A stretch of DNA of 64,000 bases from Steroidobacteraceae bacterium (GCA_035493235.1 DATJIP010000106.1:26610-90609); one strand, 5' to 3'. Shown: positions 23,554 to 49,220, counted from the first letter of the stretch. A program made the numbers and translations. The notes: a model not told the origin generated them from the letters alone.

Positions 23554-24132
23554 CTATTCCTGAATCAGTCCGCTGAAGCCCATGAACGCGAGCGCCATGA
23601 TCCCGGCTGTGATCAGCGCGAGTGGCGCCTCGCGAAAGATCATCGGCACGTCGGCGTGCTGCAGTCTTTCGTACAGCGCAGCGAACGCCAGCAGCAGCAC
23701 GGCGAGTGCCACCGCTGCCCCGATCGCCAGCAACACGGCGACGCCAAAATTCGCGGATCGCAGATCTGTAATGAGCGCGATGCCGAGCAATGCAGTGTTC
23801 GTGATCATCACCAGTGCAAAGCCGGGCTGTTGCGTCAGGATTCCCCGACGACGGCGCAACGCAACCTCCAGCAGCGGCACGACGATCAACACCACCGCGA
23901 CGAGCATCGGTGTGCGCAGGTACTCCAGGTGCCACGGCCCGAGCACCAACCGCGCGACGAGCCAGCCGAGCAACGCGACGGCAGGAACAGCGACGAGACC
24001 AAGGAGTGCGACGACACGCGCGCCGCCGAAGATGTCGGTCGGCGTGACGAACGGACGCCACTGCGGCATGTGCGCGAGTACCACTGTCGTGACCAGCACG
24101 CTGCTCAACAGAACCATGAGCAGAGCAACCAT
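23554..24132 (-). CDS. rnfA: Rnf/Rsx subunit A (divergent, no cysteines)
   Basis: LEYLRT, ERL..ADVP..FR, LITAGIMALAFMGFSGL C-terminus; first gene of the operon. Confidence 0.88.
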   Translation of the reverse strand: MVALLMVLLSSVLVTTVVLAHMPQWRPFVTPTDIFGGARVVALLGLVAVPAVALLGWLVARLVLGPWHLEYLRTPMLVAVVLIVVPLLEVALRRRRGILTQQPGFALVMITNTALLGIALITDLRSANFGVAVLLAIGAAVALAVLLLAFAALYERLQHADVPMIFREAPLALITAGIMALAFMGFSGLIQE

Positions 24133-24138
24133 GACGCG

Positions 24139-26208
24139 CTACTTCACTTTCATCCCCGGCGTCGCGCCCGCATCCGGCGCCAGCAGGAAGATGTCTTTGC
24201 CGCCGGGCCCAGCCGCGAGCACCATGCCTTCGGACACGCCGAAGCGCATCTTGCGTGGCTTGAGATTCGCCAGCACCAGCGTCATGCGTCCTGGCAGCTG
24301 CTCCGGCGCATAAGCGGAGCGAATGCCGGCAAAGACCGTGCGCTGACCTTCGCCGAGATCGAGCGTCAGCTTCAGCAGCTTGTCGGCGCCCTCGACGATT
24401 TCGGCAGCGACGATCTTCGCGATGCGCAGGTCGAGCTTCGCGAAGTCATCCACCGTCACCTCGCCTGCGGCGGGTGCGGCAGCGGGTGCAGCGGCTGGCG
24501 CCGGTGCTTTCGTCTCGGGCTTCGTCGCGGCCTCGTCGAGACCGAGCAGGGCATCGAGCTGCTTTGCTTCCGCACGCGTCATCAGATGCTCGTACGAACC
24601 AATGATGTGATTCTCGAGCAGCTGTTGCGAATCCTGCCATTGCAGCGGCGGAATACGCAGGAACTGTTCGACGGCCTCGGCCACCTTCGGCAGGACCGGC
24701 TTCAGATAGATCGTGAGCAGGCGGAACACGTTCAGGCTGACCGTGCACACCTCTGCGAGTCGCGCATCGTTCTGCGCATCTTTCGCCAGCTCCCAAGGAG
24801 CGTTCTGTGCAATGTAGGCGTTCGCTGCGTCCGCTGCTTCCATGATCTCGCGCAGCGCTTTGCCGAACTCACGTTGCTCGTAGTACGTCGCGATCGTCTG
24901 TGACGCCGCGCGCACGTCGTCGAGCATGCGATTGTTCGCAACGCTGCCGAGCCGCCCGCCGAAACGCTTGGCGACGAAACCGGCCGTGCGGCTCGCGATG
25001 TTCACATACTTGCCGACCAGGTCGCTGTTGACGCGCGCCACGAAGTCGTCGGGGTTGAACTCCATGTCCTCGACGTTCGCATTGAGCTTCGCCGCAATGT
25101 AATAGCGCAGCCACTCCGGGTTCATGCCGAGCTCGAGGTAGCGCAGCGGGCTCAGGCCCGTGCCGCGCGACTTCGACATCTTGGCGCCGCCGAGCATGAT
25201 GAAGCCGTGCACGTAGACGTGATCCGGCACTTTGCGGCCGGCGAACTTCAGCATCGCCGGCCAGAACAGCGTATGGAAGTAGATGATGTCCTTGCCGATG
25301 ATGTGGATCTGCTCCGTGTCCGGCGCGGCGAGGAATTCATCGAAGCTGCGCGGCTCGCCGTTGGCGCGCGCCTTGCCGCTGTCGAAGTAATTCTTGAGCG
25401 AGGCGAGATAGCCGACCGGCGCGTCCAGCCACACGTAGAAGAACTTTCCCGGCGCGTCCGGGATCGGAATGCCGAAGTACGGCGCGTCGCGCGAGATGTC
25501 CCAGTCGCCGAGCTGCTGGTCGCCGCTGCCGCTGATCCATTCGCGCGCCTTGTTCGCGACCGACGGCTGCAGCCGTCCCGGCGCGTCGAGCCAGCTCTTC
25601 ATGAAGTCGATGCACTTCGGGTCGGAGAGCCGGAAGAAGTAGTGGTCGGAGCTCTTGCGCACCGGCGCCACGCCCGACAGCGTCGAGTAAGGATCGATCA
25701 GGTCGGTCGGCGCGTAGACGGAACTGCAGTTCTCGCACGCGTCGCCGTACTGGTCCTTGGTGTGGCACACCGGGCACTCGCCCTTGATGTAGCGATCCGG
25801 CAGGAACATCTGCTTCACCGGATCGAAGAACTGCTCGACCGGCTTCACGTAGATCAGGCCCGCCGTCTTGAGCTTGCGGTAGATGTCGGTCGACAGCTCG
25901 AAGTTTTCGGGCGAGTGCGTCGTGTACCAGTGATCGAAACTGAGCAGAAAGCCGTCGAGATACTGACGCCGCCCGGCGCCGATCCGGCGGATCAGCTCCT
26001 CCGGCGTGATCCCCTCGGCTTCGGCCTTCAGCATGATCGGCGCACCGTGGGTGTCGTCGGCGCCGACGAAGTGCACCGGCCGGCCCTGCATGCGCTGGAA
26101 GCGCACCCAGATGTCGGCCTGGATGTACTCCATGATGTGGCCGATGTGAAACGGTCCGTTCGAGAACGGCAGCGCAGTCGTGATGAAGAGGGGACGCAGA
26201 GAACTCAT
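24139..26208 (-). CDS. metG: Methionine--tRNA ligase
   Basis: HIGH, KMSKS, Zn knuckle, C-terminal OB domain. Start MSSLRPLF at 26208. Confidence 0.96.
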
Positions 26209-26219
26209 GCCACCGATGA

Positions 26220-26264
26220 TAGCGGACTCTCCCTCATCCGCTATCCGCCAACCGCTATCCGCGC
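26220..26264. repeat. Heptamer tandem repeat (tccgcta/tccgcca/accgcta/tccgcgc) plus an inverted copy
   Basis: Four degenerate 7-mers at 26237-26264; tagcgga at 26220-26226. Confidence 0.6.
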
Positions 26265-27374
26265 CTAGCCGTTGTCCTTGACCGGCTCGAACTTCGCCTT
26301 GTTGATGGCTTTCTTGTAGGCGTCCTTGCCGCTGATCATGGCCTTGTCGAGCAGCTCCTGGATCGCGGAATCCATCGTCCGCATGCCATGCGCGGCGCCG
26401 CTCTGCATGGTGTTTTCCAGCTGGTCGAGCTTGCCCTGGCGGATCAGGTTCGCCACCGCCGGCGTGTTCACCATGATTTCCAGCGCTGCAACGCGGCCGG
26501 GTTTGCCCGCCTTGGGGATCAGCTGCTGCGAGATCACGCCGCGCAGCGAGGTCGAAAGCATCGCGCGCACGTGCTGCTGCTTGTCCGCCGGGAAGGCATT
26601 GACCATGCGATCCACCGTCGGCGCGGCGCCGTTGGTGTGCAGCGTGCCCATCACGAGAATGCCCATTTCGGCGGCGGTGACCGCCGCGCTCATCGTCTCG
26701 TAGTCGCGCAACTCGCCGACCAGGATGATGTCCGGATCCTCGCGCAGGGCCGACAGCAGCGCTTCGTAGAACGACGGGGCGTGGGTGCCGATCTCGCGCT
26801 GGCTGATCAGGCAACTCTTGCGCGGGTGCACGAACTCGATCGGGTCTTCGATCGTCAGGATGTGGCCCTTCAGCCGCGTGTTCATGTCGTCGATCATCGC
26901 CGCGAGCGTCGTCGACTTGCCCGAGCCGGTCTTGCCGGTCACCAGGATCAGACCGTTGTTCACCTTGCAGAGGTTGCGCACCGCGTCCGGCATGTTGAGC
27001 TGGTCGAGCGTGAGCGCTTTGGACGGAATCGCACGGCAGACGCAGCCGAGACCGTAGAGGTGTCGCATCACATTGACGCGGAAGCGCGAGATGCCGGGAA
27101 TGATGTAGGCGAAATCTGCGCCGTTCTTTTCTTCCAGTCGCTGCTGTGCGGCCCGCGGCATGATCTCGCGCAGCGTCTCTTCGACGAACTGCGGCGACAG
27201 GATCTCCGATCGCAGCGGCTGCAACTCGCCGTACATGCGGATGCGCGGCGGATCGCCTGCGATGAAGTGCAGGTCCGAGCCGTTGCGCTGGAGAACCTCT
27301 TTCAGGTACTCGTCGATGCGTCGCGGGACGTAGGTGTTCGCGGTTGCGCCGCTGACTGGTTCGGTGCTGCTCAT
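26265..27374 (-). CDS. PilT/PilU-family type IV pilus ATPase
   Basis: [40 protein letters not shown]. Confidence 0.92.
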
Positions 27375-27381
27375 GGTGCTG

Positions 27382-28476
27382 CTAGCCGGGCGCGAGGTCG
27401 AACTTCGGCAGGACGGTCGTGTCGGTCACGAACTTCGAGAACAAGCGCTTGTCGCTCGCGTATACGTAGGCATCGTCGGGGTCGATCTCCTTCGCCTGGA
27501 CGTTCTGCAACAGCGCCTGATCGAGCATCTGCATGCCGAGGTCTTTGCCGGTCTGCAGCTGCGTCGGAATCTGGTGCGTTTGGTCGGTCATGATCAGCTT
27601 GCCGATCGCGCGCGTCAGCACCATGACTTCGCAGATCGCCTTGCGGCCGCGCTGATCCGCGGTCTTCACCAGCACCTGCGTGATGACGGCGATGAGGCTC
27701 TGCGACAGGAAGCTCTTGGTCTGCTCGCGCTCGTCCGCCGGCAGCGCGTCGACGACGCGGTCGATGGTTTTCACGGCGCCGGTCGTGTGCAGCGTGCCGA
27801 GCACGAGATGCCCGGTTTCGGCGGCAGTCATCGCCCAGCGGATCGTGTCCGCGTCGCGCAACTCGCCGACCAGAATCACGTCGGGGTCCTCGCGCATCGC
27901 CGCGCGCACGCCCTCGGCAAAGGTGGGCAGGTGCGTGTTGAGCTCGCGCTGGATGATCTGGCTGCCCTTGCTCTTGTGCACGAACTCGATCGGATCCTCG
28001 AGGCTGATGATGTTCAGCTTGCGGGTCGAATTCAGGTGATCGATCATCGCCGCGAGCGTCGTCGACTTGCCGGTGCCGGTCGAGCCGGTGACCAGGATCA
28101 TGCCCTGGTGGTGGTCGCACAGCTTCTTGACGATCGGCGGCAGCCCGAGCTTGTCGAGCGACGGCGGATCGGCAGGGATGGCGCGGAACGTCGCGCCGAT
28201 GCCGGTGTCCTTGCGGAACACGTTCACGCGGAAGCGCCCGCCGTTCGACGACACGTAGGAGAAGTCGACGTCGTGGCCCTTGCGCAGGCGATCCTGGTTC
28301 GGCTTGCTGACGATCTCGACGATGTAGCCTTCCAGCTCCGCCTGGCTCAGGTCGCGGAACTTGATGGGCATCAGGTCGCCGTGCATGCGCAGGAGCGGCG
28401 GCAGACCGACGGCGAAGTGGATGTCCGAGCAGCCCTGGTCGGTGCCCAGCTTGAGGAATGCGTCGATACGTGCCAT
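27382..28476 (-). CDS. PilT/PilU-family type IV pilus ATPase
   Basis: SDIH, GSTGTGKSTT, SLEDPIE, LVGELRD, GTLHT. Confidence 0.92.
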   Translation of the reverse strand: MARIDAFLKLGTDQGCSDIHFAVGLPPLLRMHGDLMPIKFRDLSQAELEGYIVEIVSKPNQDRLRKGHDVDFSYVSSNGGRFRVNVFRKDTGIGATFRAIPADPPSLDKLGLPPIVKKLCDHHQGMILVTGSTGTGKSTTLAAMIDHLNSTRKLNIISLEDPIEFVHKSKGSQIIQRELNTHLPTFAEGVRAAMREDPDVILVGELRDADTIRWAMTAAETGHLVLGTLHTTGAVKTIDRVVDALPADEREQTKSFLSQSLIAVITQVLVKTADQRGRKAICEVMVLTRAIGKLIMTDQTHQIPTQLQTGKDLGMQMLDQALLQNVQAKEIDPDDAYVYASDKRLFSKFVTDTTVLPKFDLAPG

Positions 28477-28494
28477 GAGGAGCGGAGGGTACCG

Positions 28495-30921
28495 CTACTG
28501 AGGCATCTTCTCCAGTTCCTGGCGCAGCTCGTCCATGGTCTGGTGACGCTTCATTTTGTCTACCGACATCGCGCGCCCGACCAGGTCGGAGATCGGCTTC
28601 GGCAGCTGCGGGTTCACGTCGAGCGCGGACTTCGCCTTGCCCTGCACGTGCTGGTACATGACCGACATGTGGTCGCCGCGGCTGTAGGGCGGCTGGCCGG
28701 TGAACATCTCGTACATGATCACGCCGACGCTGTAGATGTCGGCACGCTGGTCGACTTTCTTGCCGAGGATCTGCTCCGGCGCCATGTATTTCGGCGAGCC
28801 GATCACGTAGCCGGTCTTGGTCAGCTGCGTGTCGCCTTCCTTCTGCGCGGCGGCGACGCCGAAGTCGAGGATCTTCAGCAGCCCCTCGTTGTTGATCATG
28901 ATGTTCGCCGGCTTCAGGTCGCGATGCACGACGCCGGCGTGGTGCGCGACCGACATGCCGGTGCAGATGTCGATGCCGTACTGGATGGCGCGCGGCAGCG
29001 GCAGCGGCTTCTCGTTGACGATCTCGCTGCCGAGCGTGTGGCCGGGGAAGTACTCCATCGAGATCGCGTAGTTGCCACGCATGTACAGGAAGTCATAGAT
29101 GCGGATGACGTTCTTGTGCGTGATCTTGCGCGAGTAGCGCAGCTCGTGCACGAAGCGCTTCATCATCTCTTCGTCGTTCGCCACGTTCGGGTTGAGGAAC
29201 TTCAGGATCAGCCGCTCGTCGACGACCGTGTCCTCGACCAGCACGACCGTGCCGAAAGCGCCCTTGCCGATCTTCTCGATGAACTTGTAGCGGCCCTCGA
29301 GGATGTCGCCGTTCTTGAGGGTGGCGATGTCCATCTTTACGCCGGTGGCGGCGGTCTCCTCCACCTTCTTGAGCACCTGGTCGACGTCGCCCTTCTCGAT
29401 CAGCAGCGTACGCGGCGGTTCGGCCGGCTTCGCAACCTTTATGTTGGCCGCTGCCGTGGCTGCCGCTGCCGCGGCGACTGCCGTGCTCGAGTAGCGATTG
29501 TCGATTTCTTCGAGCGCGCGGTACGCCGCTTGCTGGATCGTCTCGTCGTTGGCGCTCGAGCCGGCCGCCTGGATGTAGCTGCGCACGCTGTCGGCGCGTT
29601 TGTCGTCCGCCAGTCGCGCGAGCGCGTTGATCGCTTCGACCTTTATCTCTTTCTCGGGGCGCTCGAGCAGCCGCACCATCGGCTCGATGACGCGCACGTC
29701 GCCGAGCTTGCCCAGCGCACGCGCGATGGTCGGCAACGAGCGGGCGTTTTCCGAATTCAGCAGCTCCATCAGTGTCGGCACGGCTTTCTTGCTGCCGATC
29801 TCGGCGAGTGCGTCGACGGCACGCTCGCTCACCCACCAGTCCTTGTCCTTGGTCGCCTCGATCAGGAAGTTGACCGCGCGCTCGTCCTTGGTCTGGTTCA
29901 GGATCTCGATCGCCGCGCGCCGCACGTCCTCATCCTCGTCGCGGATCAGCTCGATCACGGCGTCCACGACGCGCGGTCCGCCGATCTTGCCGAGCGCGTC
30001 GGCGGCGCGCGTGCGCACCCACCAGTCGTCATCCTTGATGACCTGCAGCAGGTGCTTGATGTCGCGCGCGGTGCCGAGATGGTTCAGCACTTCGACCGCG
30101 GCACGCCGGGCGTACTCGTTCTCGTCCTTCAGCACTTCGACGAGGTACTTCATCGTGTCCGGGTCCTTGGCCCGCACCACGACGTCGATCGCGCGATTGG
30201 CGACCTCGAGATCCGGATCGCGCAGCATCTGGCAGACCGGACCGACCGCGATCGGACCGTCCATCTTGGCGAGCGCGTTGAGCGCCGCCTGACGGATCAG
30301 CTTGTTCGGGTCCTTGAGCTGCGTCTGGATCGCTGCCGAGACATCCGGCCGGTTGAAGCGCGACAGGATGTTGATGATGTGGATGCGGGCGATCGAGTCC
30401 TTGCCCTCGATGCGGCTGGTCAGCTCGGGAATCGACTGTGTGTCGGCGAGCTCGCCGATGATGCGGAACAGTGCCGCCTTCTCGTTCGCCTCCTGGCTGT
30501 ACGCGTGTTGCAGCAGGTCGCGGACCGAGAAGCGCTGCTTCTGGGCGGCGATGATGTCCAGCACTGCGGGCTTGGAGACGTCCTCACGGCCCAGCAGGTC
30601 GATCAGCAGCGAGGGACTGTAGTTGTGGCTGGCCGTCAGCGCCCAGGCGACGGCGGCAATCGTGCGCGGGCTGCCGTCGGTCAGGCCCGCCACGAACTGC
30701 GGGAAGGTCTTGTTGTCGACGAGCTGTGTCAGGATCTCGACGTACGAGGCCGCTTCCTTCTTGTCTGCGACGGCGAGCGCGTCGAGGATCTTCGGGATCG
30801 CACCAGGGCCGATCTTCGCGAGCTTCTCGAACGCCTGCCGTGCCTCCGGGTGCAGCGGATCGCCAATTCCGCGGATTTCCGCGATCAGCCGCTCAGCTTT
30901 CAGATCCGAAAAGAAACTCAT
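28495..30921 (-). CDS. HEAT-repeat protein with C-terminal Hanks-type Ser/Thr kinase
   Basis: About 480 aa of HEAT/PBS-like repeats, then IGKGAFG, ILK, HRDLKPAN, DFG, GSPKYMAPE; no TM segment. Confidence 0.9.
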   Translation of the reverse strand: MSFFSDLKAERLIAEIRGIGDPLHPEARQAFEKLAKIGPGAIPKILDALAVADKKEAASYVEILTQLVDNKTFPQFVAGLTDGSPRTIAAVAWALTASHNYSPSLLIDLLGREDVSKPAVLDIIAAQKQRFSVRDLLQHAYSQEANEKAALFRIIGELADTQSIPELTSRIEGKDSIARIHIINILSRFNRPDVSAAIQTQLKDPNKLIRQAALNALAKMDGPIAVGPVCQMLRDPDLEVANRAIDVVVRAKDPDTMKYLVEVLKDENEYARRAAVEVLNHLGTARDIKHLLQVIKDDDWWVRTRAADALGKIGGPRVVDAVIELIRDEDEDVRRAAIEILNQTKDERAVNFLIEATKDKDWWVSERAVDALAEIGSKKAVPTLMELLNSENARSLPTIARALGKLGDVRVIEPMVRLLERPEKEIKVEAINALARLADDKRADSVRSYIQAAGSSANDETIQQAAYRALEEIDNRYSSTAVAAAAAATAAANIKVAKPAEPPRTLLIEKGDVDQVLKKVEETAATGVKMDIATLKNGDILEGRYKFIEKIGKGAFGTVVLVEDTVVDERLILKFLNPNVANDEEMMKRFVHELRYSRKITHKNVIRIYDFLYMRGNYAISMEYFPGHTLGSEIVNEKPLPLPRAIQYGIDICTGMSVAHHAGVVHRDLKPANIMINNEGLLKILDFGVAAAQKEGDTQLTKTGYVIGSPKYMAPEQILGKKVDQRADIYSVGVIMYEMFTGQPPYSRGDHMSVMYQHVQGKAKSALDVNPQLPKPISDLVGRAMSVDKMKRHQTMDELRQELEKMPQ

Positions 30922-31026
30922 CCCGCCCTGAGGTCCGCTTTAGCGTGTGTAACTCATTATGCCACGGCTGCCGCGCTACAATCCGCGCCTCGCGAGCCAG
31001 CCCGTCAGGATCCGTCCATCGTTCTC

Positions 31027-32121
31027 ATGACTACTCCGCCCGAAGTCGCATTGCGCGAGGCCGTCGAGTCCTACGTCGACCCCTACCTTGGGTTGGAGCT
31101 GCGCGCGGCCGGCGCGCTGCGCGGACTGAATCTCGACGCCGAACAGCTCGCCATCGCGCTGACCCTGGGATTCCCGGCTCGCCACTATCGGGATGAGCTC
31201 GCGGCCGCGATCGAGCAACGGGTGCGTCCGCTCGTCGGCACGCGCAGCGTGACGATCGACATCGATTGGCAGATCGCGGCGCACGGCGTCCAGCGCAATC
31301 TGCGGCCGATTCAGGGCATCCGTAACATCATTGCAATCGCTTCAGGGAAAGGCGGAGTCGGCAAGTCGACGACTGCCGCAAACCTGGCGCTCGCGCTGGC
31401 GTACGAGGGCGCCGCGGTCGGCCTGCTGGACGCCGACATCTATGGCCCGAGTCAGCCGCTGATGATGGGACTCGCAGGCCAGAGTCCGACCAGCCCCGAC
31501 CAGCGCACGATGATCGCGCCCGTGGCGTACGACGTGAAAGTCATGTCCGTCGGCTTCCTCATCGACGCCGAGCAGCCGATGGTGTGGCGCGGGCCGATGG
31601 TGACGCAGGCGCTGGTGCAGCTGTTGGAGACGACGCGCTGGGGCGAGCTCGATTACCTGGTCGTCGACATGCCGCCCGGCACCGGCGACACGCAGCTGAC
31701 CTTGTCGCAACGGGTGCCGGTGAGCGGCGCGGTGATCGTCACGACGCCGCAGGACATCGCGCTGCTCGATGCACGCAAGGGGCTGCGCATGTTCCAGAAG
31801 GTCGAAGTGCCCGTACTCGGCATCGTCGAGAACATGAGCACGCACGTCTGCTCGAACTGCGGCCACGAGGAGCACATCTTCGGCGCCGGCGGCGGTCGCC
31901 GCATGGCCGAGCAATATGGCGTCGACCTGCTGGCCGAGCTGCCGCTCGACATCCGCATCCGCGAGCAGGCGGACAGCGGCCGGCCGACCGTCGTCGCCGA
32001 GCCGGACAGCACGCTCGGGCGCGCCTACATCGACCTCGCGCGCCGGACTGCGGCGCGTCTGGCGCGCACGGCGCTCACGCCCGCGGCGGCCTTCCCGACG
32101 ATCACGATGGAAGACACTTGA
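31027..32121 (+). CDS. apbC: Iron-sulfur cluster carrier ATPase ApbC/Mrp
   Basis: SGKGGVGKST, DADIYGPS, WRGPM, DMPPGTGD, ENMS...CSNC. Confidence 0.95.
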   Translation: MTTPPEVALREAVESYVDPYLGLELRAAGALRGLNLDAEQLAIALTLGFPARHYRDELAAAIEQRVRPLVGTRSVTIDIDWQIAAHGVQRNLRPIQGIRNIIAIASGKGGVGKSTTAANLALALAYEGAAVGLLDADIYGPSQPLMMGLAGQSPTSPDQRTMIAPVAYDVKVMSVGFLIDAEQPMVWRGPMVTQALVQLLETTRWGELDYLVVDMPPGTGDTQLTLSQRVPVSGAVIVTTPQDIALLDARKGLRMFQKVEVPVLGIVENMSTHVCSNCGHEEHIFGAGGGRRMAEQYGVDLLAELPLDIRIREQADSGRPTVVAEPDSTLGRAYIDLARRTAARLARTALTPAAAFPTITMEDT

Positions 32122-33311
32122 TGGACGCAGATACCGCTAGCGACGTTTCAATACGGCAGTCGGTCTACACCGGCATCCTGCCGTTCCAGGCCATCCGCGA
32201 GATGGTCGATGGCGGCGACATCCGGGCGACGGAAATCTTCGGCGCGATCGAAGCCGATCAGATCCAACCGGCGAGCATCGATCTGCGTCTCGGCTCGCAC
32301 GCCTATCCCGTCGATACCAGTTTTCTGCCGGGGCGCGGCGTAAAGGTCCTGGAAAAGATGGAAGACCTCGATCCGGATTTCCAGCGCTTCAAGATCGATC
32401 TGACGGACGGTGCGGTCCTGGAGCAGGGCCGGGTGTACGTCGTGCCGCTGGCCGAATTCATCTCGCTGAAGAGCGAGGTCGCGGCCTTTGCCAATCCGAA
32501 GAGCTCGACGGGCCGCCTGGACATCCTCACTCGGCTGATCGCCGACGGTGCGACGCACTTCGATCAGGTCGAGGATGGTTACAAGGGACAGCTCTACATA
32601 GAGATCGCGCCGCGCAGCTTCAGCGTCGTGGTGAAAAGCGGCACCCGACTCAATCAGCTGCGCTTTCGCCGCACGCGCGGCTCGGCGCCGCGACCGATCA
32701 CCGGCGCGGACTGGAAGACGCTGCTCGACGACGGCAGTGTCGTCGATACGCGCAGCGCGGAGGAAAAAAGCAGGCTCGGTGACCGACCCGGGTTCCTGCC
32801 GTTCACGGTCGACCTCGAAGGTTCGGGCCGTGGCGATTCGCTGGTGGGCTGGCGCGCCAAGAAGCACACGAAGCGGATCGATCTCGAGCGGCGCGATTAC
32901 GATCCGCTCGACTTCTGGGAACCGATTTACTGGCACAAGCACCCGTCCCTGGCGCTCGTGCCCGACGAGTTCTACATACTGATGACGAAGGAAGCGATCG
33001 CCGTGCCGCCGAGTTACGCGGCGGAGATGCTGCCCTACGACACGCGTGCCGGCGAGTTTCGCGTTCACTACGCAGGCTTCTTCGATCCGGGCTTCGGCTG
33101 GAACCCGCAGACCGGCAGAGCCGGTAGCAGCCGCGGCGTACTCGAAGTGCGCTCGCACGAAGTCCCGTTCCTGCTCGAGCACGGACAGACCGTGGGGTGG
33201 CTGCGCTATGAGCGCATGGCGCAGTCGCCGTCGACCTTATACGGACGCGAGATCAGCTCGAACTATCAAGGACAAGGTCTGAAGCTCGCGAAGCAGTTTC
33301 GACAGAGCTAG
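32121..33311 (+). CDS. dcd: 2'-deoxycytidine 5'-triphosphate deaminase, long two-domain type
   Basis: QIQPASIDLRLG, NPKSSTGRLD, EFRVHYAGFFDPGFG, VLEVRSHEVPF. ATG overlaps the apbC TGA. Confidence 0.9.
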   Translation: MDADTASDVSIRQSVYTGILPFQAIREMVDGGDIRATEIFGAIEADQIQPASIDLRLGSHAYPVDTSFLPGRGVKVLEKMEDLDPDFQRFKIDLTDGAVLEQGRVYVVPLAEFISLKSEVAAFANPKSSTGRLDILTRLIADGATHFDQVEDGYKGQLYIEIAPRSFSVVVKSGTRLNQLRFRRTRGSAPRPITGADWKTLLDDGSVVDTRSAEEKSRLGDRPGFLPFTVDLEGSGRGDSLVGWRAKKHTKRIDLERRDYDPLDFWEPIYWHKHPSLALVPDEFYILMTKEAIAVPPSYAAEMLPYDTRAGEFRVHYAGFFDPGFGWNPQTGRAGSSRGVLEVRSHEVPFLLEHGQTVGWLRYERMAQSPSTLYGREISSNYQGQGLKLAKQFRQS

Positions 33312-44084: not shown

Positions 44085-45343
44085 GCACCTCGGCGGTAGT
44101 CGGCAATGCAGTACCGCGTCGCGTTGCGTTGAACGCGCTCATTGCGCTCTCGCTCCTCAATCTCCTCAACTATCTCGATCGCAATCTCGTCTCCGCGCTG
44201 GTCGAGCCGCTGCGGCACGAGTTCGGCGTCAGCGACTTGCGGATCGGCTTGCTCGGGACGGTCTTCCTGATCGTCTATACGATGGCAGCGCCGCTGTTCG
44301 GCTCGCTCGGCGATCGCGGCATTCGCACGCGAGTTCTCGCGGCCGGTGCGGTGTTGTGGAGCATCGCGACCTCGCTGTCCGGCTTTGCCCAGAATTTCGT
44401 GTCGCTGCTGTTCGCGCGCGGTGTGATCGGCGTCGGCGAAGCGGCGTACGTCACGGTATCGGCGAGCCTGCTCGCCGACTATTTCCCGCGCGATCGCCGC
44501 GCTCGCGCCTTCGCCGTGTTCTATCTCGCGATTCCGGTTGGCTCCGCGCTCGGCTTCATCGTCGGCGGCCTGATGGAGAAGCACTTCGGCTGGCGCTCGG
44601 CATTCTTCATCGCCGGTATTCCCGGCCTGCTGCTCGCGTTGTGGGTGCTGATGCTCAGAGAGCCGCAACGCGGTATTCAGGACCGCGATCAGCCGCTGCC
44701 GGCGGCGGCGTCCGACGAGGACATCTTTACGCGCGGCAAACGCTTTTTCCGGATCCGTCCGTACCGACTCGCAGTCGCCGGCTATACCGCTTACACGTTT
44801 GCCGTTGGCGGCCTCACGCTGTGGATGCCGGCATTTCTGGAGCGGATGCGCGGACTGGCGCGCGCCGACGCGACGATCGGTTTCGGTGCGGTCACCGTGG
44901 TCACGGGCCTGGTCGGAACGTTTGTCGGAGGCTGGCTCGCTGATCGCTTGTTGAAGCGCTACGGTCAGAATGCGTACTGCTGGGTGTCGGCAGTATCCGT
45001 GGCCGCAGCGATCCCGTTCGCCGTCGTCGCGCTGACGGTGCCGTCACCGACGATCTATTTCCCGGCGCTCGCGCTCGCGCAGTTCCTGCTCTTCGTCTCG
45101 ACGAGCCCGATCAACACTGCGATCGTGTCGTTCGTCGCGCCGCAGGACCGCGCCTCGGCCATGGCGGTCAGCGTCTTCATGATTCACGCGCTGGGCGACG
45201 TGATTTCACCGCCGCTCATCGGTCTCGTCTCGGATCACAGCTCGCTCGCGCACGGCGTGCTGCTCGTACCGATCGCGCTCGTCGCGTGCGCCTTCTTCTG
45301 GTGGCGTTCGGCGAACGTGCAGCCCGCACACGAACCCGCCTAG
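44081..45343 (+). CDS. MFS transporter (spinster-like)
   Basis: [16 protein letters not shown]; about 12 TM segments. Confidence 0.88.
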
Positions 45344-45367
45344 GACCCGCGACCGAAGTAGCGGTCG

Positions 45368-46192
45368 TTACCAGCGCGCTGGATCGACTCGGTAGTAGCG
45401 GCGCAGTTGCTCGTACAGGCCCGCATGTTGCAGCTCCAGCTCACGCGGCTTTTCGAAGAACGCTTCCGTGACGACCGCGAAGAACTCCGCCGGCGCGCTC
45501 GCTGCGTAAGGATCCAGAAACGTTGGTTGTCCCGCGCCGAGCATGGCGCGCAGCCGGTCGTATTCCTCCCAGAAGACTCTCGACCATTCGCGATACGCGC
45601 GCGGGCTGCCGAGACCCGGTGCGCCGTCCATCGTCTCGTCCTCCATGTCGAGGTAGTGCGCGAACTCGTGCAGCACGACGTTGTGACCGGTCGTGAGGCC
45701 GTCTTCGATGTCCTGCCACGACACGATGATCCGGCGCGAGTCCCACGCCTGGCCGGACAACACGCGCTGTCCTTCCGTCACCATGTGCCCGTCGCGCAGC
45801 GTGTGCGGCACGATGAACGGCGTCGGATACACCAGGATCGAAAACAGATCGTCGTAGAAGTGCGAGCGCGGGACATCGGGCCGGTTGACGACGAGCAGAC
45901 AGGCGTAGGCGGCGATCACCACGCGCATCTCTTCCGTGACCGTCAGCCCATTGCAGCCGACGAACGCCTTTTCGCCGACAAAGATCCGGATCAGCTCGTG
46001 CAGGCGCGGGCGCAGCTCGGGCGGCACGCGGGCGTAGATCGACGTGCGGGCGCGCAGCCAGTCCTGCCATTGCTCCGGAAACGTCTGGCGGGCCAGCAGC
46101 CGGCGCCGGCGGCGACGCCACCAGGCCTCGCCGGCGATGAACCACGCGGCGACACCTACGGCGATCGCGACCAGGAAGAAGAGCAGCAGCAC
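45368..46192 (-). CDS. M90 family zinc metallopeptidase (MtfA-like)
   Basis: NVVLHEFAH, PAEFFAVVTEAFFEKP. Confidence 0.88.
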   Translation of the reverse strand: MLLLFFLVAIAVGVAAWFIAGEAWWRRRRRRLLARQTFPEQWQDWLRARTSIYARVPPELRPRLHELIRIFVGEKAFVGCNGLTVTEEMRVVIAAYACLLVVNRPDVPRSHFYDDLFSILVYPTPFIVPHTLRDGHMVTEGQRVLSGQAWDSRRIIVSWQDIEDGLTTGHNVVLHEFAHYLDMEDETMDGAPGLGSPRAYREWSRVFWEEYDRLRAMLGAGQPTFLDPYAASAPAEFFAVVTEAFFEKPRELELQHAGLYEQLRRYYRVDPARW

Positions 46193-46243
46193 GCGAGGTT
46201 CTTCGTTATCGGCCAGTCCAGCGAGCCCAATGCGGGCGCCGCG

Positions 46244-48250
46244 TCAGACTTTCAACTGGTTGACCAGGAATTTCAGCCGGCTCAGCTCCGACCGGTTGAG
46301 CTGCGGCCCCCACGAACGCGGACCGTAGCGCAAGGCGACATAAAGATTGCGAGCTTCCCCGAGCTGCTGCGCGAGCTCCGGCCGGAGCTGCGACACGCGC
46401 GCGACGTAGTCGGTCGGCCCTTCGTGCGCCGCGCGCGGTAAGCCATGACGCGCGAGCTTGCGGCACAGCTGATCGTAGATCTGTGCGAGCGGATCGCGTG
46501 CGCGCGGACGGAAGCGCCACGCCAGGTATGCCGACATGAGCCCGAAGAATGCGACCAGCGTCAGCACCAGCGCGATCCCCAGCTCGCGCCAGTCGCCGTC
46601 ACCGATGTTCATGCGCTCGAGCAGCCACTGCTGTTGCGATTCGCCGAAATCGACGACCTGGTTGTTCCAGAACGTGTTCGCTGCATCCCACGTGAGGCGC
46701 AGGCGCGAGAGCCACGCGTTGTGGCGCATGAAACCGCCCAACGATTCGCCTCCGTCGCTCAGCACGGCTTCGAGCCCGCGCTCGATGCGATCCGGTGCGA
46801 CGGCGGCGGTCGGGTCGACGCGCACCCAGCCGCGGCCCTCGAGCCACACCTCCGACCACGCGTGTGCTTCCGACTGACGGATCAGCACATAGCCGTTGAG
46901 CGGATTGAATTCACCGCCCTGATAGCCGGTGACCACGCGTGCGGGAATGCCGGCGGCACGCGCCAGCATCGTGAACGCCGAGGCGAAGTGCTCGCAGAAT
47001 CCGCGGCGCGTGTTGAACAGGAAATCGTCGACCGAGTCGAGCCCGAGTCGGGGCGGCTCGAGCGTGTAGAAGAATTGCTCGTTGCGAAACTTGTCGAGCA
47101 CCGCGGCGATGAAAGCCTCGTCGCTGCCCGCACGCTCGCGCATCTCGCGGGCGAGGGCGGTCGAGCGCGGGTTGCGATCGTCGGGCAGGCGCAGATCGGC
47201 ATTGCGCATGGCTTGCGGCAAAGTTCCGATCACTGCGTAGCTCGTCGCCGACTCGAGGCGGAAGGAGCTCAGCGTGGCGATTGGCGCATCCGACCATAGC
47301 TGCAAGTCGGCAGCGCGGTTCACGCGCCGGTCCGGCCAGCGGGTCGGGGCGTCGAGTGCGAAGACCCAGCGTCGCTGGTGCGGCTCCAGCATCACCTCGT
47401 ATCGATACGTGCCGCCGACGGCCGTGACCTCCTGCGGCACGAAGCCGTAACGCCGCTGGCGCCAGGTGCGGCCGTCGAAGTCGTGCATCACGGGTCCGCG
47501 CCAATACAGCTCGCGCGCGGGCGGCAACGAGCCAGCGAATTTCGCGCGGAACGCCAGCGCGCCGGATACGCTGAGGTCGGAAACGTCGCCGGGCGTCATC
47601 TCGTCCGAGAGGCCGGTCGTTGCCGCGCCGCGGACCGGCACGACCGCCCAGAACTGACCTGGCAGGCGTGGGAACAGCAGGAACAACAGGATCGCAAGCG
47701 GCAGCGATTGCAGGAACATCTTGCCGGTGATGCCGACCGCTTCGCGCACCGACATCGACGTCGTCGTCTGATGGATGCGCATGAGCGTGACGGTCAACAG
47801 CCACGCAGTCACGAGCATGTATGGCAGCTGCAGCATGCTCTGGTTGTAGAGGAATGCCGCGAACAGCGCGAAGTAGGACAGAAAGACGATCACGGTGAGA
47901 TCGCGCACGGTGCGCGTCTCCAGCAGTTTCATGCCTGCCATCAAGACAAGCAGCGCGGTGCCTGCGTCGATGCCGTTGATGGTCCGGTAATCGAGCAGAA
48001 CGGCGAGAAGTGCCACGAACGCGAGCACGCCGCGCAGCCATTTTGGCGGCAGTTGCCACTGCTTGACCTCGATCGCGAGTCGCAGTGCCGCCGCGCCGGC
48101 GGCGAGCAGCAGGATCCAGGCCTTGATGTGCGAAGCGTGCGGCAACACCGAGAGCGTGAGTGCCGCGATCACCCACACGAGCCGTTGCAGCGTCGGCGGC
48201 CAGCTGGCCGCTGCCGTCACCGCCCAGCGCAGTGTTCTTGCCTCAGCCAC
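46244..48250 (-). CDS. DUF3488/transglutaminase-like membrane protein (TgpA-like)
   Basis: Multi-TM N-terminus; GFCEHFA, AHAWSEVW, RVDPT. Confidence 0.9.
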   Translation of the reverse strand: MAEARTLRWAVTAAASWPPTLQRLVWVIAALTLSVLPHASHIKAWILLLAAGAAALRLAIEVKQWQLPPKWLRGVLAFVALLAVLLDYRTINGIDAGTALLVLMAGMKLLETRTVRDLTVIVFLSYFALFAAFLYNQSMLQLPYMLVTAWLLTVTLMRIHQTTTSMSVREAVGITGKMFLQSLPLAILLFLLFPRLPGQFWAVVPVRGAATTGLSDEMTPGDVSDLSVSGALAFRAKFAGSLPPARELYWRGPVMHDFDGRTWRQRRYGFVPQEVTAVGGTYRYEVMLEPHQRRWVFALDAPTRWPDRRVNRAADLQLWSDAPIATLSSFRLESATSYAVIGTLPQAMRNADLRLPDDRNPRSTALAREMRERAGSDEAFIAAVLDKFRNEQFFYTLEPPRLGLDSVDDFLFNTRRGFCEHFASAFTMLARAAGIPARVVTGYQGGEFNPLNGYVLIRQSEAHAWSEVWLEGRGWVRVDPTAAVAPDRIERGLEAVLSDGGESLGGFMRHNAWLSRLRLTWDAANTFWNNQVVDFGESQQQWLLERMNIGDGDWRELGIALVLTLVAFFGLMSAYLAWRFRPRARDPLAQIYDQLCRKLARHGLPRAAHEGPTDYVARVSQLRPELAQQLGEARNLYVALRYGPRSWGPQLNRSELSRLKFLVNQLKV

Positions 48251-49220
48251 TGCTCGCCCGCTCGTCGAACAATGCCAACGCCGTCAGACAATGCTGTCGA
48301 TGCCCAGGACCGACGTTCGGCGCGATCTCCACGCCCGGCAATCGCAAACCGAATGCACGACCGGCCGCGTACGCGTCCTCGACCCAGCGACAGAGCTGCG
48401 ACAGGCGTGCTTCCGTGCCGAGGCCGTCGAGCGCATCCCAGTCGAAAGAATGCGAAGTCACTGCCGTGCCTGCGTAGAGCTTCACGTGCAGACCTTGCTC
48501 GCGGGCATACGCCTTCCACGCAATCCGTCGCGGCGAATCGCCGGGATGAAACGCCCGCAGGCCCGCAAAGTCCTCGTCGCCGCGTGTCGTCTCCTGGGCG
48601 CCGCCGGTGTCGGTTTCGAGCGGCGGCGGCGGCAGGCCGCGCGGACTCGGCTTCGGATAGACGACGCAGCGGATCTCCATGTTCAGATACGCCCACGCGC
48701 GAAACATGCCGAACGGATGTCGCGTCGTGATCTCGAACGAGTCGAGCGGCAACAGGCCGCGTTGCGGCGCTGGTACGTCGAGGTCCAGCACGACGCGCCC
48801 GCCCGGCTCGATACGCACCGGCGTGGCGATGCCGTACTCGTTGGCGATCGTCAGCTCATGGCGTGCCACCTTGGCATCGTTCTCGAGCGCGAGGCGGAAG
48901 CGCGCCGTCTGTCCCGCGAACACCGGCTCGCTGGCCGCCGAGCGGATGTGCACGCCGGCTAGATTGCGATGGCAGTAGTGCATCGCTGTGAGCGCCAGCG
49001 CACCGAGCATGAACGTGAGGCCGAGCGCGAGATTGTTCGCGTAGTTCATCGCGCCGAGGAACATCGCGAACAGCATCAGCGAGAAGGCGATGCCGAGCGA
49101 GCTCGGCACGATATAGATGCGGCGGCCGGAGAGGATCAGCGGATCGGAATCGATGCCGTGCCGCTTGCGCGCCCATTTGCGGGTGCGCGTGCGCAGGGCG
49201 GCGAGGGCGCGCGCGAGCAT
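48243..49220 (-). CDS. DUF58 domain protein
   Basis: HPFGMFRAW, DFAGLRAFHPGDSPRRIAWK. Confidence 0.88.
   Translation of the reverse strand: MLARALAALRTRTRKWARKRHGIDSDPLILSGRRIYIVPSSLGIAFSLMLFAMFLGAMNYANNLALGLTFMLGALALTAMHYCHRNLAGVHIRSAASEPVFAGQTARFRLALENDAKVARHELTIANEYGIATPVRIEPGGRVVLDLDVPAPQRGLLPLDSFEITTRHPFGMFRAWAYLNMEIRCVVYPKPSPRGLPPPPLETDTGGAQETTRGDEDFAGLRAFHPGDSPRRIAWKAYAREQGLHVKLYAGTAVTSHSFDWDALDGLGTEARLSQLCRWVEDAYAAGRAFGLRLPGVEIAPNVGPGHRQHCLTALALFDERASSG

Follow-up and report, generated by a model that had tools for sequence, protein, structure and literature searches.

What is a eukaryote-like protein kinase doing at the head of a run of genes that otherwise encodes two ATPases of the PilT family? 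The question is raised by a stretch of 64,000 nucleotides (nt) from a Steroidobacteraceae bacterium (GCA_035493235.1, DATJIP010000106.1:26610-90609; the whole stretch is hereafter termed the window), whose minus strand encodes in succession a soluble HEAT-repeat Hanks Ser/Thr kinase of 808 amino acids (aa) (28495-30921), a PilT-like ATPase of 364 aa that we term A (27382-28476) and a second PilT-like ATPase of 369 aa, termed B (26265-27374). These assignments derive from open reading frame calls and translation, combined with Pfam and NCBIfam profiles for the kinase and the TIGR01420 profile for the two ATPases. The kinase and A genes are separated by 18 nt (28477-28494), and those of A and B by 7 nt (27375-27381). 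The original prediction made for this DNA had described an 808-aa HEAT and kinase protein followed by two PilT-family ATPases at precisely these gaps, and the coordinates, translations and domain scores all agree with that description. Comparison across genomes further indicates that the three genes very probably constitute one co-evolving functional unit. Within it A and B are predicted to be dedicated hexameric ATPases of the PilT subfamily with intact catalytic sites. A full-text literature search recovered no paper on this kinase-A-B module.

The case for such a unit is carried by its phyletic distribution. A full-length kinase was found in 41 of 41 relatives, with identities of 47-95% and every one of the 17 sampled families of the order represented. 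Close homologues of the kinase bear Steroidobacter and Steroidobacteraceae names, and the trio shows 80-95% identity within the family. The label "accessory", which the original prediction had given the module, therefore has to be dropped: the trio is core and fixed in place in all 41 genomes of the order. In a class-level sample of 300 genomes spread evenly over the Gammaproteobacteria (271 genera), a full-length kinase is present in 40 genomes belonging to 35 genera, with 39-55% identity over the full length. Orthologues of ATPase A likewise occur in 40 of the 300, and 39 genomes have both (Fisher p 1e-46, a value that ignores kinship), such that the presence or absence of kinase and A agrees in 298 of them. 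Both discordant genomes have a ready explanation: one (G192) contains a weak kinase-like match of 29% identity without A or B, while in the other (G279) A and B begin about 800 nt from a contig end and the kinase is cut off. A sample of 400 genomes at the level of the phylum yielded no additional kinase orthologue. The order kinase, A, B on one strand is seen in 19 of 20 class-level loci, the twentieth genome having its A/B pair on another contig, and is kept in about 150 named loci. At the class-level loci A proteins are 59-71% identical to each other and B proteins 53-67%, as against 40-48% for cross matches. Co-conservation of the kinase and PilT genes, whose absence the original prediction had named as grounds for giving up its proposal, is thus what was found. 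A comparison of distance matrices over 17 genomes gave correlations of 0.83 for kinase and B and 0.71 for kinase and A, versus 0.47 for kinase and canonical PilT, which lends modest mirror-tree support to co-evolution of the kinase with the two ATPases.

It could still be argued that the gene order persists by vertical inheritance alone and that the adjacency has no functional meaning. Most carriers of the trio are related Gammaproteobacteria, shared ancestry inflates the counts, and the statistics take no account of kinship. Set against this is the behavior of the flanking genes. The Steroidobacterales, including the Woeseiaceae, share the arrangement of the window, with a divergent apbC gene beside the run kinase, A, B, metG, whereas the trio of other lineages lies behind a gene whose product, of about 155 aa, weakly matches DUF6812, and an FHA gene (product of about 222 aa) usually comes next after B. 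The order of the trio has hence been kept while its flanks changed completely, and the concordance of kinase and A in 298 of 300 genomes from 271 genera points the same way. Furthermore, in the sole genome of its kind (G235) the A/B pair (L148, G235:C37:1836-4025) is unlinked from the kinase (L052, G235:C50), and all three genes are nevertheless retained. We regard a meaningless linkage as very improbable. The trio is ancient and vertically inherited, with its members inherited, kept and lost together.

Profile searches place both ATPases firmly in the PilT family, with scores against TIGR01420 (pilT_fam) of 403.3 bits for A and 436.8 bits for B relative to the curated cut-off of 319.1; both also match the Pfam T2SSE profile. 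The Walker A motif, the Asp box (EDPIE), the Walker B motif (GExRD) and the His box (TLHT) are intact in the two proteins of the window and show conservation of 90% or more among 52 orthologues of each. Both proteins probably function as ATPases, and their nearest relative of known structure is PilT of Pseudomonas aeruginosa (3JVU/3JVV; 308 and 329 bits). At the position of the AIRNLIRE motif, A reads AIGKLIMT and B reads AVANLIRQ, just as the original prediction had quoted, and the consensus of the A clade is t.AI..Li. The motif has been lost in A and is partly kept in B, and neither protein displays the form that marks canonical PilT.

In an unrooted tree with branch support from the Shimodaira-Hasegawa-like approximate likelihood ratio test (SH-aLRT), the 89 PilT-family proteins of 21 genomes fall into four groups, namely canonical PilT (17 rows, SH-aLRT 100), PilU-like proteins, clade A (21 rows, SH-aLRT 100) and clade B (21 rows, SH-aLRT 96). 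The identification of A and B as orthologues of canonical PilT was considered and rejected, as both form clades separate from PilT and PilU. The PilT from the same genome as the window (contig C232) falls in the canonical clade and not with A or B. Elsewhere in this assembly (5.96 Mb, 267 contigs), other contigs encode a canonical PilT (510 bits), a PilB above its cut-off and, at a contig start, a PilT-family fragment that is probably PilU. Because the genome holds a canonical PilT gene and this probable PilU fragment on other contigs, A and B are extra paralogues and not the sole retraction motors of the cell. The same applies more widely: 28 of 28 carriers checked keep a canonical PilT and at least one PilU-like gene elsewhere, in line with the earlier claim that canonical pilT and pilU usually lie apart from this locus. 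In 11 carriers a third PilT-family gene follows the canonical pilT-pilU pair (L137-L149, e.g. G103:C2:49863-53128). In the tree these third genes are placed among the PilU-like proteins, 10 of the 11 grouping together, and they bring the number of PilT-family ATPases to five per genome.

Each of the two clades is further distinguished by sequence signatures of its own. Members of clade A possess a clade-specific C-terminal tail of about 20 residues, with the motif F-x-(R/K/Q)-(F/Y)-V-T-(D/N)-x-x-L-L-P at residues 346-358 (27403-27441, minus strand), as defined by comparison of the 52 orthologues. Its Thr351 is Ser or Thr in 94% of these. A back-translated DNA pattern of the tail matched at least 119 stretches in the genome collection, and all but 2 of those fetched lie in A orthologues. 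In the AlphaFold model of A (predicted local distance difference test, pLDDT, 90.9) the tail is extended, with pLDDT falling from 87 through 69 to 45. This tail is a candidate docking or phospho-acceptor peptide. In clade B, position 275 is an invariant Ser/Thr (Thr275 in the B protein of the window), where PilT has Glu and PilU has Leu.

The kinase protein combines two well-defined modules, HEAT_2 being recovered with 208.7 bits in 6 stretches and Pkinase with 181.6 bits at residues 545-797. Its membership in the Hanks kinases is clear from the PF00069 score, which lies far above the gathering threshold of 31.7. The N-terminal HEAT solenoid extends from residue 1 to about 490 (29452-30921, minus strand), as delineated by the Pfam models HEAT_2, HEAT and HEAT_PBS, the helices of the AlphaFold model and the alignment. 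It comprises about 30 helices, or roughly 15 hairpins, modeled with pLDDT above 90, and its sequence matches alphaRep/PBS-HEAT designs. Two alignments of the kinase were used, one of 15 sequences and one of 46 orthologues. In the latter the most conserved part of the solenoid is the region of residues 235-380, and two DxDWWVxxRAxDAL..IGG units are found in the solenoid at 297-315 and 359-377. The match to PBS-lyase HEAT-like equivalogs was examined and set aside, with NblB reaching 97.5 bits against a cut-off of 300 and CpcE 84.6 against 330; only the type of repeat is held in common. The solenoid is followed by an Ala-rich flexible linker (residues 492-513; 29383-29448, minus strand), which is disordered in the model (pLDDT below 50) and differs in length and sequence among orthologues.

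The Hanks kinase domain proper occupies residues 540-806 (28504-29304, minus strand), its bounds being supported by the Pkinase match, the invariant motifs and Foldseek. The catalytic motifs read GKGAFGTV (glycine loop), LILKF (with the catalytic Lys), HRDLKPAN, DFG and APE. The glycine loop, catalytic Lys, HRD and DFG are invariant in both alignments. Across the 46 orthologues the P and E of APE are invariant too, while its Ala is conserved in at least 90%. The activation loop reads DTQLTKTG..GSPKYMAPE; of the two Thr residues in LTKTG, both alignments show the first to be invariant, and the 15-sequence alignment shows the same for the second. The model has a mean pLDDT of 87, with the activation loop flexible. 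Foldseek searches with it recovered kinase domains only and nothing informative for the HEAT arm; they include the kinase domains of PknB and Stk1 (TM-score 0.86-0.89). With PknB/Stk1-type kinases the domain shares its fold, its motifs and the TxT activation loop; it differs from them in its C-terminal position (an inverted order) and in lacking both a transmembrane (TM) helix and a PASTA domain. Consistent with this, the Stk1/PknB PASTA kinase family (NF033483) was rejected as an assignment, as its 279 bits fall below the cut-off of 450, cover the kinase domain only and come with no TM or PASTA match. No TM helix is predicted anywhere in the protein, where no 19-residue segment exceeds a Kyte-Doolittle value of 1.4. 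The kinase is hence predicted to be catalytically complete and soluble. Beyond the HEAT array and the kinase domain there is no further domain and no membrane anchor, and therefore the input or the target of the kinase must be a protein bound by the HEAT arm.

A quite different interpretation is suggested by the kinase domain when viewed in isolation, namely a role of the locus in defence against phages, as a Ser/Thr-kinase system of PD-T4-6 or MADS type. The domain matches the PADLOC models for PD-T4-6 (up to 271 bits) and mad6 (237 bits) and the NCBIfam MAD6 model (158.6 bits). These matches, however, span just the generic kinase domain (538-806), and the NCBIfam score is well short of the cut-off of 460. 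Moreover, genomes of the order carry the trio as a core element, in single copy and at a fixed position, with a composition like that of its flanks, which is the opposite of the patchy, island-borne distribution of defence genes. We consider this interpretation largely refuted by the generic nature of the PADLOC matches and by the core and syntenic character of the locus, and hence hardly credible.

The above observations can be combined into a possible functional mechanism. The HEAT solenoid would be the arm by which the kinase docks onto the paired motors A and B, with the A-specific C-terminal tail (FxxFVTDxxLLP) as its best candidate ligand. The kinase might be activated by autophosphorylation of the conserved TxT activation loop, whereupon it could phosphorylate threonines of the motors, the candidates being Thr351 of A and Thr275 of B, or else a reader protein. 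Such phosphorylation could then switch how the motors hydrolyze ATP or whether they engage the base of the type IVa pilus. Outside the Steroidobacterales, the unit is augmented by the FHA protein, as a reader of phosphothreonine, and by the small DUF6812-like protein. In its entirety, including the direction from kinase to motor and a pilus-related role, this mechanism is offered tentatively, as a possible account rather than a probable one. The direction of control and any part played in pilus retraction are features that we infer.

Several observations weigh against a kinase that controls pilus motors in this manner. The AlphaFold model of the kinase has a predicted template modeling score of 0.55, the HEAT and kinase domains having no confident mutual orientation, and the excess of the mirror-tree correlations is just modest, over 17 genomes. 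No pilus gene was found in cis at any trio locus examined. In the window itself the absence of pilin and assembly genes from the vicinity, noted in the original prediction, holds in as much as the translations from 14-42 kb read as housekeeping proteins, a reading made by eye and without a family search. The association of carriers with pili is also less telling than it may appear. PilB is strong in 36 of 40 carriers as compared with 166 of 260 non-carriers (p 0.0009, ignoring kinship), and it exceeds the cut-off in 202 of the 300 class genomes; because type IVa pili are common in the class, this co-occurrence is weak evidence. Finally, both the FHA and the DUF6812-like genes are missing in cis in the window, which means that the reader step is not encoded there.

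The lack of pilus genes in the neighborhoods raises the alternative that A and B form a free-standing motor, in which stacked or mixed hexamers of the two pull or remodel a substrate other than the pilus and the kinase gates them. In about 170 loci no pilin, platform or secretin gene lies beside the trio. A and B are long-separated clades with signatures of their own, A having lost AIRNLIRE and gained its tail, and outside the Steroidobacterales they come with their own small DUF6812-like partner. In addition, the carriers already have PilT, PilU and often a third paralogue to serve their pili. Yet each of the 28 carriers checked also encodes a canonical set of type IVa motors, and PilB is enriched in carriers relative to the other genomes. 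A branch of the unrooted tree with SH-aLRT 100 has canonical PilT on the same side as A and B and the PilU-like genes on the opposite side, and no neighboring gene points to an alternative substrate. Were this view correct, the trio would represent a machine derived from the pilus motor that works off pili, gated by phosphorylation and possibly organized as a mixed or stacked double hexamer, and it would perform mechanical work on a substrate in the cytoplasm or envelope or act as an ATP-driven sensor for a threonine-phosphorylation branch. We judge such a departure from the pilus unlikely, although not negligible, whether stated in its simpler or its fuller form.

The kinase-to-motor mechanism favored here may also be turned around, such that the nucleotide or load state of A and B is sensed through the HEAT arm and the kinase writes phosphothreonine marks for FHA proteins and further outputs to read. 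Besides the HEAT array the kinase contains no sensor domain, and its input would on this account have to be a partner protein. In many lineages the gene next after B encodes an FHA reader; at two loci (L158, 11216-12604, and L181, 11803-13209) this gene is present in two tandem copies. Although the window lacks such a gene, the genome does encode a single full-length two-domain homologue of the module FHA protein in trans, on contig C228, with 192 bits versus at most 92 for its other FHA proteins. There (about 44300-48744) it follows genes for a membrane Hanks kinase of CHASE2-TM-TPR-like architecture and a PP2C-like phosphatase, the latter two having been read from sequence without a family search. 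At the window locus itself no triad of kinase, PP2C and FHA is present, as neither of the last two is encoded there. A homologue of the DUF6812-like protein was not found in the genome by tblastn or by a profile hidden Markov model built from 46 sequences. As for the direction of the signal, the sequences give no indication of it, and both ATPases keep their full catalytic machinery, as working motors do. The Steroidobacterales, moreover, have no FHA gene in cis and the trio is strongly conserved in them all the same. A reversed flow of the signal appears to us quite doubtful. Of the four alternatives these last two are the more credible, the defence and the meaningless-linkage explanations being unlikely.

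How then does the trio, with a kinase that may act on its motors, compare with previously described systems? The nearest known arrangement is the pilT-pilU tandem, and the nearest logic is that of the PpkA/PppA/Fha1 pathway of the type VI secretion system (T6SS) and the archaeal Arn network. Like the PilT-PilU tandem of P. aeruginosa, V. cholerae and Neisseria, the trio includes two adjacent hexameric ATPase paralogues of the PilT family with complete motifs. PMC6762196 presents PilU as a PilT-dependent motor. Unlike that tandem, A and B define their own clades, are additional to pilT and pilU in the carriers checked and have the HEAT-kinase gene ahead of them; A, besides, is without the AIRNLIRE motif and has a conserved tail. 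The threonine-phosphorylation pathway of the T6SS consists of the kinase PpkA, the PP2C phosphatase PppA and the reader Fha1. PpkA resides in the membrane and possesses a periplasmic domain, and the ATPase of the T6SS is ClpV. As in this pathway, a Hanks kinase is tied by gene order to the ATPases of a nanomachine, and the fuller module found outside the Steroidobacterales adds an FHA reader. The trio kinase, in contrast, is soluble and carries a HEAT array at its N-terminus, its partner ATPases belong to the PilT type rather than being ClpV, no FHA or PP2C gene occurs in cis in the window and T6SS genes are absent. For the archaellum of Sulfolobus acidocaldarius, PMC5300886 describes a network in which the Hanks-type kinases ArnC and ArnD and a PP2A phosphatase influence a type IV filament machine. 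Unlike the trio, the Arn network is archaeal, acts on the expression of the archaellum and is not in an operon with the motor ATPase; neither a HEAT scaffold nor PilT paralogues form part of it.

Few molecular motors known are as strong as those of the PilT type. To our knowledge, their regulation has been traced to second messengers and partner proteins and not to a dedicated kinase. The trio ties a eukaryote-like kinase firmly to two PilT-like motors of its own in about one in eight of the sampled gammaproteobacterial genera, including groups that are abundant in soil and sediment such as the Steroidobacteraceae and Woeseiaceae. If the kinase does gate the motors, type IV filament machines would have a new level of control; should the motors instead have left the pilus, the PilT engine would have found a new use. 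Cultured carriers, among them Steroidobacter spp., Povalibacter uvarum, Lentisalinibacter orientalis and Ectothiorhodospira mobilis DSM 4180, make these possibilities directly testable.

The taxonomic spread of the carriers also permits a reconstruction of how the trio came to lie in its present position. Named carriers comprise Steroidobacter, Peristeroidobacter, Povalibacter (including P. uvarum), Woeseia and Lentisalinibacter (including L. orientalis), along with E. mobilis DSM 4180 and Thioalkalivibrio sp. XN8, and the metagenome-assembled genomes (MAGs) that carry it are labeled Chromatiales, Thiohalomonadales, Thioalkalispiraceae, Ectothiorhodospiraceae, Granulosicoccaceae and Thiotrichales. 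In 11 of 12 carriers outside the Steroidobacterales apbC and metG are direct divergent neighbors away from the trio, which upholds the statement in the original prediction that these two genes are often adjacent in this manner and marks their direct adjacency as ancestral. The simplest history would be insertion of the bare trio between apbC and metG at the base of the Steroidobacterales. In one MAG locus (L184, JBCAXP010000222.1, 683-7147) a divergent apbC is followed by the DUF6812-like gene, the kinase, A and B. This locus has the look of an intermediate and fits a stepwise loss of the DUF6812-like gene after insertion beside apbC.

Two further loci depart from the common pattern in other respects. 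In a Steroidobacteraceae MAG (L118, JASGLD010000004.1, 8531-9744) a 1.5-kb insert lies between the kinase and A genes. As read from its translations, it encodes a 176-aa putative transposase of the REP-associated (IS200-like) type and a 211-aa protein with a signal-peptide-like N-terminus, and it is flanked by REP-like repeats; the operon apparently tolerates this interruption. The other is a contig labeled Candidatus Methylomirabilis sp. (L306, DATIFO010000166.1, 5136-7997), which contains the trio with an A protein 62% identical to that of the window. Among the fetched matches to the tail pattern it is the only contig with the trio that is labeled as lying outside the Gammaproteobacteria, and its presence there would reflect either horizontal transfer or a binning error.

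In the window, the trio is bounded downstream on the same strand by metG, encoding a methionyl-tRNA synthetase of 689 aa (24139-26208, minus strand), and upstream by the divergent apbC/mrp, encoding an Fe-S cluster carrier ATPase of 364 aa (31027-32121, plus strand), both identified from translation and synteny. The G+C content of the trio (0.63-0.65) matches that of its flanks (0.63-0.69), and there is consequently no sign of recent import. Direct reading of the 105-nt divergent intergenic region between the kinase and apbC (30922-31026, assigned to neither strand) reveals a TGnCATAAT extended -10-like box about 30 nt upstream of the kinase start. A consensus scan found no full sigma-70 site in this region, and the box as a promoter for the kinase is only a suggestion. 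The scan likewise found no promoter on the strand of the module, its one promoter-like match lying on the opposite strand inside metG. Shine-Dalgarno sequences are absent ahead of A and B, and together with the short gaps this suggests translational coupling. In a terminator scan of 23900-31400 no terminator-like site was detected between the kinase, A and B genes or in the spacer between B and metG, and the two matches in the scanned region are fewer than in shuffled sequence. The metG gene may be co-transcribed with the trio.

The 56-nt spacer that separates the stop of B from the start of metG (26209-26264, minus strand) was found on direct reading to contain a tandem GCGGATAGCGG repeat as well as a hairpin, GATAGCGGA-N10-TCCGCTATC, whose 9 bp pair perfectly and which has no T-run; it could be a processing or regulatory element for metG. 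On the other side of the module, apbC is followed by a gene for a 396-aa dCTP-deaminase-like protein (32124-33311, plus strand), which is kept only in the closest Steroidobacteraceae loci.

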